From: a virus
Taxonomy: Duplodnaviria; Caudoviricetes
Virus record (IMG/VR): IMGVR_UViG_3300031994_000004
Length of the DNA stretch: 64,000 bases
Direction: 5' to 3' (one strand)
The translations under genes were made by a program, and so were the position numbers. The notes beneath the pieces were generated by a model that saw only the letters and a list, made by a program, of their open reading frames with translations, ran no database searches and was not told the origin of the DNA. Below are positions 43,343 to 48,106 of the stretch, piece by piece; the first letter of the stretch is position 1; each line of letters opens with the position of its first letter.

Positions 43343-43418
43343 GTAAATAAAAATTTACAAAAAATATAACTAAAACTGCGTATTTGGTATTGACAAATGG
43401 CAGTTTATTTGTTATATT
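43343..43418 (+). promoter_or_regulatory. early promoter with GTAAA-N6-TTTAC palindrome
   Basis: palindrome 43343-43358; TTGACA 43390-43395; TATATT 43413-43418. Confidence 0.8.
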
Positions 43419-43450
43419 TACTATGTAAAAATAAGAAAAGAGGTTTAACT

Positions 43451-44029
43451 ATGAACAAAAAAATTACTCTCCGTCCGTGGCAAGCAAAAGCAGTCAAAAC
43501 TATTGCTCAGGCATTATGTGTTCCACATTCACTTGTAGCAGTAAATGCTTGTGTCGGTAGCGGAAAGACATTTGTTCCTTTTGAAGCTATTGTTAATTTC
43601 ATTAAGCAGCATAAGAACGAAAAAACATTCCATACATTTGTATGCCCGAGAATTAAGTTGTGTAAACAACAGAAAAGAGAAGCAGAAAAACTTTTTGAAG
43701 ACCGCGGATTGAATGTTTCTGTTAAAATTTGGAACAGTGATTCTGATGATGTCGGACAAAGATACGTTGATAATAAGCCTTTTTGGTTAAACGATGACAG
43801 ACATATTGTGTGTATCATTTGTGATGAATCGCTCTGGGGTATTTCGGTTTCAAAGAATACTGATGGTTCGCAAGAAGAAAAATTCCGCTATGAACGTTTC
43901 GTTAAAATGCTTCAAAATAATGTAAAATACAAACGAATCAACGGCATAATTGCGTATGACGAAGCCCACAATTACAAAACAAAACAAACATTTATGTTTG
44001 GCGAAAAGAAGTGCCTGGGGGTTAAGTAA
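43451..44029 (+). CDS. SF2 helicase N-terminal half (ResIII-like; motifs Q, I, Ia, II)
   Basis: LRPWQ, ACVGSGKT, VCPRIKL..Q, YDEAH; ends just after motif II; start ATG 43451 with GAGG SD. Confidence 0.78.
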   Translation: MNKKITLRPWQAKAVKTIAQALCVPHSLVAVNACVGSGKTFVPFEAIVNFIKQHKNEKTFHTFVCPRIKLCKQQKREAEKLFEDRGLNVSVKIWNSDSDDVGQRYVDNKPFWLNDDRHIVCIICDESLWGISVSKNTDGSQEEKFRYERFVKMLQNNVKYKRINGIIAYDEAHNYKTKQTFMFGEKKCLGVK

Positions 44030-44808
44030 TGAAAAAGAATTATATGGAAACGATTGACAGCTCTTACAAGAGCTTGATAACATTTGCTCATAGCGGAAAG
44101 CGTGGAACTAATATGAGTGATACACCAATTCGCAATACAACACTAAAAAAGTTGTATAAGGAATTTTTCACACAATTAGTTAATTGGGATTTCCCACTTC
44201 ACAATAATAAATTTATTAAGAATTTCTGCGGTGAGTGGGTTAAATTTAATAACAAATTCAAAACAACTTTTGAAAAGAAATTTAGAAAACTCGTTGATAC
44301 AGACGAACAATGTTTTAATTGTTGGTTAAAGTTCAAGGGTAACTGTGGCGAAATTTTTGCTGAATGGTATTTTAGATATGGCGACTGTTCTATGATTGAA
44401 CAAAGTACATATACTACAGTTGACCCGAATAACGAAAACTTTACTGATGCAAGTGCGGAATCTAGCGAAGATAGTTATCCGATTGGTATTCAAATTAAGA
44501 ATTGGGTTAATGAAATTTCATTTGATGTGTTCAAAGCAGCCGGTGCTCAGATTACACAGACTGCTATGAAAATGAAAACAAATGACCCAAATTTTGATTT
44601 GAATGCTTTTATGAAACCGGATAGTTGCCGACAAATTGTCTTTTCCATAACTGATCGTATTTGGAACAAAGCTATGGATGTGGATGGATGGCTTAAAACT
44701 GGTTTGATTGAGTTTATTGGACCGAAACAAATTGATGAGTATTTACTTTCGTTTACAAAGGACAAATTTACCAAACAAATCACCGATAAAATCATTAAGA
44801 AGTTGTAA
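44029..44808 (+). CDS. putative PD-(D/E)xK restriction-type endonuclease
   Basis: KGNCGEIFAE...FTDA...IGIQIKN (E...D...QxK); start may be 44113. Confidence 0.6.
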   Translation: MKKNYMETIDSSYKSLITFAHSGKRGTNMSDTPIRNTTLKKLYKEFFTQLVNWDFPLHNNKFIKNFCGEWVKFNNKFKTTFEKKFRKLVDTDEQCFNCWLKFKGNCGEIFAEWYFRYGDCSMIEQSTYTTVDPNNENFTDASAESSEDSYPIGIQIKNWVNEISFDVFKAAGAQITQTAMKMKTNDPNFDLNAFMKPDSCRQIVFSITDRIWNKAMDVDGWLKTGLIEFIGPKQIDEYLLSFTKDKFTKQITDKIIKKL

Positions 44809-44810
44809 TT

Positions 44811-44875
44811 GTAAATACAATTTTACATAAATTTGAGCCAAAATTATTGACAGTTTTGGTTCAATTTACTATATT
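44811..44875 (+). promoter_or_regulatory. early promoter with GTAAA-N6-TTTAC palindrome
   Basis: palindrome 44811-44826; TTGACA 44847-44852; TATATT 44870-44875. Confidence 0.85.
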
Positions 44876-46369: not shown

Positions 46370-46430
46370 ACAAAATTTTACATATTTTTACATTAAATAG
46401 GTTGACAAAACTGCGTTAAAATTCTATATT
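46366..46430 (+). promoter_or_regulatory. early promoter with GTAAA-N6-TTTAC palindrome
   Basis: palindrome 46366-46381; TTGACA 46402-46407; TATATT 46425-46430. Confidence 0.85.
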
Positions 46431-46458
46431 ATTAATGTAAAAATTGGAGATACTAACT

Positions 46459-47574
46459 ATGAAAGAAATGCTCAACCTTAAGAACCCGAAGATTTATGCT
46501 GAAATGTTTCTCAGCCGTATGCCGAAAAATTCCAAGCGAATTTTAATGTATGGTATCAGCGACAAAAGAACGATTGAAATTATCTTGGATTCTTTCCCGG
46601 AAGCAGAATTTGTGGTAGCTGACCATGAAGCAAACAATAATTTGTTAAAACATTTCTATGAAGAAGGTAAACAATTTACATATATAAATACATCAGACGA
46701 TGAAAAAGATTTAACTCTTTTTTATAAAGAAGGAGAAATTGGAAGTATGCATTTTGATGTTGCTATTACAAATCCGCCTTATGATAAAGGTTTACATTTG
46801 CGTATTTTAAATGAAATCAAGAATAATACAGATGAAATTTATAATATATCACCAATTCAAAAATATCAGGAATACTTTATCCATAATGGATTTAATAATG
46901 ACGAATTAAAAAAATTAAATAAAACACATAAAATTGATTTTTTGACATATTTTGATTGTGATTATTCTTGCAATTTCTTTGGTCTTTCTTCTTTGGGTAG
47001 TGATACTGGTATATGGAAGATTACTAAAAGAAACAAATTTAATGCAGAAAATAATAAAAAGGAAATTGAAAAAAATTTGACTAAAATTGTTCCACACTAT
47101 AATTTGGTTAAAAAGATTATTACTAAATTTAATGAAAGCAATTTAGAAACTCTTAATGAGTATTTAACTGAATCTCCTGAAAAGTATTCTATTAAATTTG
47201 TATATGGACTTACCCTTAAAAATAATGGAGGGCATGGATTTTCCGCATTTTCTTGTACTTCTAGAAATCAAGATACTGCTTTTGAAAACAGTGGTGAATC
47301 TTCTCATATTCGTTATGTTAATGCTTCAACACAGAAACACAGAATAAATATCTGGAAAAGTTATACAACCAAATTTATGCGTTTTTATCAAAAATGTGTA
47401 ATGTTAGGAAATGCTGACTATTCAAAAATTCCATATATGATTGATTATGAGAATGCTTGGACTGAAAAAGATTTTTGTGATTATTTTGACATTACTGGCT
47501 ATATTTCTGATACAGAAGCCGTTAATGGTAGTGAATGGGAAATTATCCTTAATACAATGAAAGAGCACAATTAA
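46459..47574 (+). CDS. adenine methyltransferase subunit with catalytic NPPY and putative TRD (Eco57I-like) but no intact motif I
   Basis: MHFDVAITNPPY, ISP, DTGIW, IPY..DY...W; probable start ATG 46459 with GGAG SD. Confidence 0.7.
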   Translation: MKEMLNLKNPKIYAEMFLSRMPKNSKRILMYGISDKRTIEIILDSFPEAEFVVADHEANNNLLKHFYEEGKQFTYINTSDDEKDLTLFYKEGEIGSMHFDVAITNPPYDKGLHLRILNEIKNNTDEIYNISPIQKYQEYFIHNGFNNDELKKLNKTHKIDFLTYFDCDYSCNFFGLSSLGSDTGIWKITKRNKFNAENNKKEIEKNLTKIVPHYNLVKKIITKFNESNLETLNEYLTESPEKYSIKFVYGLTLKNNGGHGFSAFSCTSRNQDTAFENSGESSHIRYVNASTQKHRINIWKSYTTKFMRFYQKCVMLGNADYSKIPYMIDYENAWTEKDFCDYFDITGYISDTEAVNGSEWEIILNTMKEHN

Positions 47575-47575
47575 T

Positions 47576-48106
47576 ATGACTATTTACGATTATGATAATG
47601 ATTTTGCACATTATGAATTGGATGAAAGTTCAAAAAAAGATTTAGGTCAATTTTGGACGCCGTTCCATATCATTGAGCAAATGATGGATAAGGCCGGCAC
47701 CATAGAAGATAAAAATTCTGTTTGGTATGACGAAACTAAAACCAATTTGGATCCGACTATGGGTGCCGGCAACATTGTAATTGCTATGCTTTATCGCAGA
47801 ATCGTGCAGTGTGGGCAAGATCCGGTGGTGGCTCTATCCAATGTATATGGAGTAGAACTGGACAGTAAGACACTAAAGTATGCCAGAGAACGTATCTATA
47901 AGTTTATGATGGCAGTTGAAAAGAAATCAGGAGCCAAGTGGAGCGAAGATAACTGGAAGAAAATACACGATATAATCTATTGTAAAAATCCGTTTACAAA
48001 TAGTAAATATCCGAACTTTGTTTGCTCTGATATCTTCGCTTGGAACATTGAAAAATGGAAACCTGAAAGCGAATGTAACGGCGAATTTGACGAATTCTTT
48101 TCGTAA
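47576..48106 (+). CDS. methyltransferase SAM-binding subunit (motifs X, I, II) lacking NPPY
   Basis: LGQFWTP, LDPTMGAGN, VYGVELD; C-terminal FDEFFS. Confidence 0.72.
   Translation: MTIYDYDNDFAHYELDESSKKDLGQFWTPFHIIEQMMDKAGTIEDKNSVWYDETKTNLDPTMGAGNIVIAMLYRRIVQCGQDPVVALSNVYGVELDSKTLKYARERIYKFMMAVEKKSGAKWSEDNWKKIHDIIYCKNPFTNSKYPNFVCSDIFAWNIEKWKPESECNGEFDEFFS

Follow-up and report, generated by a model that had tools for sequence, protein, structure and literature searches.

Gene content of the locus

A 64,000-nucleotide stretch of DNA from a tailed phage (IMG/VR record IMGVR_UViG_3300031994_000004; the whole stretch is called the window below) carries, between positions 43,343 and 48,106, a module in which four functions are encoded by five polypeptides: a helicase-like motor in two pieces (helN and helC), a nuclease (nuc), a predicted adenine methylase with a recognition region (mC) and a small half-methylase (mD). 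The five open reading frames (ORFs) had been described, with their motifs, in an earlier note on this DNA; all five are confirmed, intact and on the plus strand. The features of the module are as follows.

43390..43418 (+): promoter-like site (TTGACA-17-TATATT) before helN, within a repeated regulatory cassette (43339-43450)
43451..44029 (+): helN, first part of RecA1 of a superfamily 2 (SF2)/ResIII helicase; GSGKT (motif I) 43556-43570, DEAH (motif II) 43958-43969
44029..44808 (+): nuc, 259-aa stand-alone PD-(D/E)XK nuclease (predicted); E108, D140, Q155-x-K157; start overlaps the helN stop codon
44833..44875 (+): hairpin and promoter-like site in the gap between nuc and helC
44912..46369 (+): helC, remainder of RecA1 (TGTP, motif III, 44957-44968), RecA2 and a C-terminal region of ~250 aa
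45491-45526 and 45578-45601 (+): RecA2 motifs of helC, motif V-like and motif VI (QQIGRIIR), respectively
46402..46430 (+): promoter-like site before mC
46459..47574 (+): mC, predicted complete gamma-class-like N6-adenine methyltransferase fold; NPPY 46771-46782; motif I YGISD (non-canonical)
mC residues ~120-320: hypervariable recognition region, followed by a conserved C-terminal WT...F.IT
47576..48106 (+): mD, 176-aa 'half-methylase'; motifs X (QFWTP), I (DPTMGAGN), II (GVELD) and III-like (FVCSDIF), without motif IV; starts 1 nt past the mC stop
48130..48168 (+): terminator-like hairpin at the module end, overlapping the next promoter-like site

About 50 loci, identified by L numbers, were compared with the window, and their ORFs were scored by profiles made from the five window proteins.

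A helicase divided within RecA1

The motor belongs to the SF2 helicase-like ATPases, and its motifs are shared out between two genes: motifs I and II are in helN, and motifs III, V-like and VI are in helC. helN matches Pfam ResIII over positions 1-140 of 164 only (E 6e-14), whereas the unsplit helicase of relative L023 matches over positions 2-164 of 164, which bears out the proposal of a helicase cut between DEAH and TGTP with a nuclease gene in the gap. In helC, TGTP occupies residues 16-19 and is followed by the motif V-like FQVDMISEGINL and by QQIGRIIR; the protein has no helicase-family match in Pfam, NCBIfam, PHROG or PADLOC, and a PDB sequence search was not useful. Motif III is part of RecA1 in the SF2 architecture. 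Since it lies in the first residues of helC, helN is unable alone to form a complete RecA1/ATPase domain.

Both states of the gene exist among the relatives. The 47 homologues of helC, 52-91% identical, are all 455-502 aa long, and unsplit helicases of 594-672 aa with a nuclease gene adjoining are found in L021, L023, L025-27, L030, L035, L038 and L050. When aligned to the fused helicases, helN ends 19 residues past DEAH and helC starts 15 residues before TGTP, and the two ends share a few overlapping residues when placed on the fused sequence. All split lineages have their junction in one and the same loop, which lies between motifs II and III. The length of this linker varies from 23 to ~38 residues in the fused helicases, which fits a permissive loop. 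Trees of the helicase and of the nuclease agree, and place split forms in at least three positions among the fused ones; split L036, for example, is sister to L037, whose nuclease precedes the helicase start. Monophyly of the split forms is rejected by an approximately unbiased test (p 1e-4), and a minimum of two changes between the split and fused states is needed. The split thus appears, from these comparisons, to be old and maintained at one loop.

Selection on the pieces was estimated from the ratio of non-synonymous to synonymous substitution rates (dN/dS) against the window. All parts save mC are under strong purifying selection. Outside the most diverged pair, that with L006 (nuc 0.26, helC 0.31), the ratio lies at 0.12-0.21 in helN, 0.10-0.13 in nuc and 0.10-0.18 in helC; mD has 0.09-0.25. 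The earlier note had named, as the outcome that would speak against its view, homologues that are always fused and halves under relaxed selection; instead both states are found, and helN, nuc and helC stay at 0.10-0.21 except in L006. Its judgement that the locus is maintained rather than decayed also holds, with low dN/dS and the same layout down to ~30% nuclease identity. That the pieces are functionless, decaying remnants of a once-fused enzyme is scarcely credible: their fragmented appearance is all that suggests it, and against it are five ORFs intact in dozens of independent contigs, a dN/dS of 0.1-0.25 for four of the five outside the most diverged comparison, and a promoter-like site and Shine-Dalgarno (SD) sequence for each transcription unit. 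The locus therefore offers a natural SF2 ATPase that is cut within a RecA domain and kept so, with fused and split versions in related phages. Such pairs are a ready system for studying fragment complementation of motors and the origin of gene fission.

Three other candidates at the helicase were rejected. A group I or II intron in the gap is unsupported, as Rfam gave no match to an intron or other RNA in the locus. An apparent helC-only relative (P0122) of the fused L023 helicase is due to a 100-N scaffold gap. The third is an antisense ORF of 448 codons within helC (44999-46345, minus strand). TTA and CTA account for 0 of the 32 Leu codons of helC versus ~25% in other window genes (the UvsX-like and gp32-like genes also avoid TTA), and this avoidance takes away antisense stops and leaves the frame open. 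The antisense frame extends over 471 codons in L012, 320 in L013, 145 in L011 and 48 in L001, being open in the closest relatives only; it is not conserved in relatives and is probably a by-product of codon bias.

The nuclease gene in the gap

The gene between the helicase pieces encodes a small protein whose family comprises 51 clusters in an exhaustive search, the longest member having 291 aa and none having a second domain fused. K101, G104, N105, E108, I109, D140, Q155, K157 and G231 are invariant in an alignment of 49 sequences. The AlphaFold2 (AF2) model, with a mean predicted local confidence (pLDDT) of 92.7, shows the canonical alpha-beta-beta-beta-alpha-beta core. Structurally it is best matched by restriction nucleases, namely AspBHI (Z 8.5), PspGI (7.8), MspJI (7.7) and the nuclease domain of the Type ISP enzyme LlaBIII (7.4, 137 residues aligned), with EcoRII, Cfr10I and NucS further down at Z ~7. 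With fold and motif combined, nuc is predicted to be a PD-(D/E)XK nuclease, an assignment at the level of the fold only. The E...D...QxK nuclease that had been proposed for the middle ORF is in this way confirmed by its invariant residues and predicted fold. Sequence matches to nuc are absent from Pfam, NCBIfam, PHROG and PADLOC, and a PDB sequence search was not useful here either.

The nuclease adjoins the helicase in every locus with flanks long enough to judge, and it is intact in all except L049, where a remnant is found. There, positions 1-519, upstream of a helicase-mC fusion, hold a chimeric ORF that joins a stretch resembling the DnaB N-terminal domain to a nuclease-family C-terminal half without catalytic motifs; it looks like a recombination scar. 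nuc is the most conserved gene of the set, with 97% amino acid identity where the helicase pieces have 91-93%. In all split lineages its ribosome-binding site is encoded by the tail of helN, which points to translational coupling.

These properties bear on the alternative, raised in the earlier note, of a homing endonuclease that inactivated the helicase. Freestanding endonucleases of T4-like phages (the Seg and Mob families) adjoin the genes they cut and can split genes. On that precedent nuc would be a freestanding homing endonuclease specialised on the helicase gene, and the split would be tolerated collateral damage. Two observations are in keeping with this: nuc stands at different places with respect to the helicase even in the closely related L036 and L037, and L001-L003 have an endonuclease-like gene of another kind (DUF7487) inserted between mC and mD. 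The hallmarks of homing endonucleases, sporadic presence and faster, relaxed evolution, are however not seen in nuc. Its distribution is non-sporadic, with L049 the one remnant; dN/dS is as low as 0.10; it is coupled to helN in all split lineages; and its nearest folds are restriction nuclease domains. We regard homing as very unlikely. The suggestion of the note is not borne out, the nuclease being a constant and strongly conserved partner of the helicase.

A methylase with an exchangeable recognition region

NPPY lies at residues 105-108 of mC, and the AF2 model, in which pLDDT exceeds 90 for residues 10-130 and is lower in the variable part, has three strand-helix units ahead of it. Residues 1-195 match whole class I methyltransferase domains: DIMT1 (Z 13.9, 171 aligned), KsgA (13.4), ErmC' (13.1), METTL5 (13.0) and HsdM (12.0). 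Residues 1-345 match complete monomeric adenine methylases: CamA (Z 12.1, 300 aligned), M.TaqI (11.8, 261 aligned) and M.BseCI (11.3, 298 aligned). As modelled, mC is a full methylase fold followed by a recognition domain, similar to TaqI, CamA and BseCI. The earlier note had placed NPPY, QFWTP, DPTMGAGN and GVELD correctly. Its view of a single methylase divided into catalytic and SAM-binding (S-adenosylmethionine-binding) halves, which made the locus 'doubly split', does not survive, because mC models as a whole fold. A permuted order is likewise not supported for this phage, as strands 1-3 precede NPPY in the mC model.

The catalytic motifs of mC are partly unusual. Motif I reads YGIS, SLGN or TIGD rather than GxGxG, and motif X is missing. 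NPP(Y/W/F) is present in 16 of 17 aligned mC proteins, F99, D100, N105 and P107 are likewise kept, and the acidic residue that follows strand 2 is mostly retained. One close lineage has NAPY in place of NPPY, and an NPPW variant also occurs.

Exchange of recognition domains is known from Type I specificity genes. Where the nuclease, helC and mD of a phage share 92-97% identity with those of the window, mC is only 39-49% identical overall, with ~95-58% identity over residues 1-120, ~20% over residues 120-320 and partial conservation again at the C-terminus. DNA identity along mC runs from 99% to 45% and back to 90-98% between phages with 97% identical nucleases, and the dN/dS of mC is ~0.5-0.7. 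The middle of mC appears to be swapped like a specificity cassette, in the manner of the recognition-domain exchange described for LlaGI and LlaBIII (PMC3553950). Swapped cassettes of this kind are a possible source of new specificities. In L036, a relative with a split helicase, mC is present as two overlapping ORFs (10006-10179 and 10152-11159; 57 and 335 aa); this break in its N-terminal half is either a frameshift or a sequencing error.

The small half-methylase

The motifs X, I and II of mD are canonical and are followed by a motif III-like DxF, and the protein ends where motif IV would start. Its closest solved relatives in a PDB sequence profile search are the N-terminal parts of DrdV, M.BseCI and HsdM. 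As mC already models as a whole fold, mD is an additional half rather than a missing one, and it is treated here as a putative SAM-binding accessory. A profile comparison between the N-terminal half of mC and mD detected no homology. A search for longer proteins containing mD found none, which is weak evidence, and the predicted complex of mC with mD had a score of 0.26 (mark 0.32), a result that counts neither for nor against binding. An 'NPF' in mD, considered as a degenerate motif IV, is not conserved, and what looks like a fusion of mC and mD in L019 is an artefact of the assembly, which has Ns at both junctions.

In the clade of the window, mD begins 1-10 nt past mC or overlaps it. In some phages an insertion precedes mD, either a second mC paralogue or an endonuclease-like gene. 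The latter is seen in L001 (4409-5332; also in L002 and L003) and encodes a DUF7487 protein of 307 aa, whose N-terminus resembles a zinc finger and which has a Vsr/DUF559-like endonuclease motif; the gene has the look of a mobile endonuclease. The former is seen in L013 (5448-6317) and L015 (5602-6471), where a shorter mC paralogue (289 aa, NPPF) stands after mC, in direct coupling to the mD that follows. Judging by this layout, these two phages may have two recognition/methylase subunits with one half-methylase in common.

A different arrangement is found in relative L045, whose NPPY proteins start at NPPY, without an N-terminal half. A naturally split methyltransferase, in which neither half is complete, is thus absent from the window and found in L045, so that a true two-gene methylase apparently occurs in the wider family. 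The protein with motifs X, I, II and III recurs next to NPPY/recognition proteins both with and without an N-terminal half of their own, and this suggests an uncharacterised accessory of adenine methylases.

A rival reading is a machine that does not methylate its own DNA, that is, a site-directed motor-nuclease in which mC is a recognition subunit with catalysis largely lost and mD a SAM sensor or regulator. Such a machine would be aimed at particular DNA, for example a host or rival element, and would not be a classical restriction-modification system. The motif I of mC, non-canonical throughout, the NAPY and NPPW variants, the hypervariable recognition region and the retention of mD as a small protein of its own next to a methylase that already bears X/I/II motifs all speak for it. 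We nevertheless think it quite improbable: NPP(Y/W/F) in 16 of the 17 proteins, the kept F99, D100, N105 and P107 and the mostly retained acidic residue that follows strand 2 suggest a methylase that is still catalytic.

Gene order and linkage

The earlier note had called for a search for the same synteny elsewhere. The order helN/nuc/helC/mC was found in more than 15 loci of the clade of the window, down to 54% helC identity, and again in distant L008 and L036, with nuclease identity of ~30%. Other lineages have other orders: nuclease, fused helicase, mC (L021, L026, L030, L038 and L009); helicase, nuclease, mC (L023, L025, L027 and L048); and helicase, mC, nuclease (L035). In L004, mC stands immediately before a helC-type gene, and in L010 the nuclease is flanked by an mC end and mD. 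For L050, which was sampled starting from its helicase, the genes are helicase and nuclease with mD downstream, and L049 has a helicase-mC fusion of 1037 aa followed by mD. Helicase, nuclease and mC are thus linked through at least six gene orders, down to ~25-30% identity. This linkage, together with the fusion protein, argues that the three act together.

The alternative is that two unrelated functions travel together. The helicase and nuclease would then serve recombination, repair, fork processing or the degradation of host DNA, non-specifically, and mC with mD would be an orphan methylase with an anti-restriction role, its recognition part following the restriction systems of the host. 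The module does stand among T4-like replication and recombination genes of the window, which encode a family B polymerase (PolB), a DnaB-like helicase, a primase, a UvsX-like recombinase, a gp32-like single-stranded DNA-binding protein, an RNA ligase and an exonuclease. Orphan phage methylases of varied specificity are common (PMC7824862), and L050 has a helicase and nuclease without a recognisable mC nearby. We hold both parts of this account to be rather unlikely, because adjacency is kept across those six or more orders, including those of L035, L004 and L010, and because the helicase-mC fusion exists.

Comparison with known systems

The definition and gene order of Type ISP enzymes are given in PMC4666363. 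The module resembles them in having a PD-(D/E)XK (Mrr-type) nuclease, an SF2 helicase-like motor, a putative gamma-class-type adenine methylase and a variable recognition domain. The nuc>hel>mC order of the sister lineages L021 and L038 is colinear with Type ISP, and it is chiefly the recognition part that sets the relatives of the module apart, which is true of LlaGI and LlaBIII too. The parts list of a Type ISP/IIG-like enzyme, as drawn up in the earlier note, holds for its content of nuclease, helicase, methylase and target recognition domain, which matches Type ISP; it does not hold for a methylase in two halves. Of gamma-class features, mC has the fold (Z 11.3-13.9) and NPPY with a non-canonical motif I, and the canonical motifs X, I and II are in the separate mD.

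In other respects the module differs. Five polypeptides take the place of a single chain, the motor is cut inside RecA1, and only a partial fusion (helicase and mC, the 1037-aa protein) is seen. An additional half-methylase is present, and the module is phage-borne as opposed to bacterial or plasmid-borne. Profiles of the helicase, mC and mD found no LlaBIII or LlaGI chain among PDB sequences at E up to 1. As a set of several chains, and with no LlaGI or LlaBIII match in those searches, the module is not counted among the Type ISP enzymes.

Nuclease, SF2 motor and methylase are separate co-encoded proteins also in the CglI/NgoAVII systems with R and H (PMC5861437), in Type I (HsdR/M/S) and in Type III (Mod/Res). 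The module helicase lacks the Z1 domain. Unlike Type I, the module has no HsdS with two recognition domains, and its variable recognition region is within mC. Its helicase matches Pfam ResIII, and the helicase>nuclease order of the L023 lineage mirrors Res, but mC is not a permuted beta-class Mod, given strands 1-3 before NPPY. L045 is similar in its ResIII helicase, two NPPY/recognition proteins and mD-like half-methylase, and different in that its helicase is unsplit, its nuclease is different or unidentified, and the mC of the window carries its own N-terminal half. Hachiman (HamA and HamB) also sets a PD-(D/E)XK-type protein of ~250 aa beside an SF2 helicase, and HamA is among the weak Foldseek matches. 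On the other hand, nuc has no PADLOC HamA match, helN matches HamB marginally (E 0.0085), and Hachiman has no methylase.

A model for the module

We would give even chances to the prediction that the module is a multi-subunit, ATP-dependent restriction-modification-like machine that works like Type ISP. According to this model, helN and helC would reassemble by fragment complementation, and the nuclease and mC would dock on the resulting motor. mC would read a short DNA site and methylate it, with mD as SAM-binding accessory. At an unmethylated site the motor would translocate and the nuclease cut, as in Type ISP or Type I enzymes. The phage DNA would be self-protected, and host or rival DNA would be attacked early in infection.

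Several observations weigh against the model. It would be unusual for lytic-type phages alone to carry a complete restriction system. The structural Z values of nuc, 7-8.5, are middling, and neither the helicase nor mC gave a sequence-level match to LlaGI, LlaBIII or any defence-system model. The non-canonical motif I and the NAPY variant mean that mC may not methylate in all members. Finally, mD lies 0.1-5 kb away or is not found in other lineages (e.g., L023 and L036), and it also follows the L049 fusion, which bears X/I/II-like motifs of its own.

A wider reading can be offered only tentatively. The module would represent a phage-exclusive, modular family of ATP-dependent restriction-modification systems, in which the break in RecA1 was repeatedly gained or lost and which serves large rumen phages as an offensive weapon. 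As a part of the same joint reading, and with the same doubt, specificity would be set by a hypervariable methylase/recognition subunit together with a shared half-methylase. From the content of the module, Type ISP-like restriction logic seems to occur in the form of loose subunits too, apparently carried by large lytic-type phages and not by bacteria; if true, this would be an offensive use of restriction by phages.

Regulatory cassettes

Sites of the form TTGACA-17-TATATT are found ahead of helN, helC and mC and past mD. In total the window has 11 sites of this type, all on the plus strand, against 0.27 expected. Hairpins overlap the promoter-like sites, and the four cassettes around the module have a common hairpin-plus-promoter layout with 65% column identity. 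helC has its own promoter-like site and SD in all split lineages, and the proposal of three transcription units, each with its own promoter-like site and SD, is upheld.

Reports on T4-like phages describe promoter early stem-loop (PeSL) cassettes as agents of gene shuffling in the variable regions of the genome (PMC2839356, PMC4122927). The module cassettes are like them in being repeated intergenic hairpins with strong early-type promoters that bracket each unit; the likeness is one of layout only, and the fused-helicase lineages pack their genes without cassettes. The nested arrangement of nuc most likely arose in this cassette-rich region, either through rearrangement, perhaps at the cassettes, or through a tandem duplication whose copies were truncated reciprocally. 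A duplication would fit the small overlap of residues seen at the junction. The split would persist because the loop between motifs II and III tolerates a break.

Distribution and neighboring genes

The module family is almost confined to phage-like contigs. Among the genome contigs of 185,579 species it was found at two loci, both on short contigs of metagenome-assembled genomes (4.8 and 5.3 kb), as compared with 26 metagenome loci on contigs of up to 183 kb. A scan of IMG/VR with window-specific patterns gave no match, and one with the family alignment matched two viral contigs. A collection of cultured phages gave no DNA or protein match to the window locus; close relatives lie on metagenome contigs of 172-209 kb.

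The window has a GC content of ~33%, with its genes on the plus strand. It contains an Rfam cow-rumen-2 RNA motif at 61499-61604 (+; 90.4 bits, gathering score 66), which sets the phage in a rumen or gut environment. Within the phage replication region lies a gene for a glycoside hydrolase of family 10 (xylanase; 24845-26626, +; Pfam E 3e-51), a possible auxiliary metabolic gene. An additional methyltransferase-like gene is present at 32351-33223 (+; phrog_5172, E 2e-48; phrog_799 'DNA methyltransferase', E 1e-8). The same early region encodes a protein with a poly(A) polymerase/CCA-adding head domain (27271-29181, +) and an M16 (insulinase-like) peptidase (36474-37577, +), and a gene for a Major Facilitator Superfamily transporter is found in this phage-like genome at 56658-57764 (+; Pfam E 2e-21).

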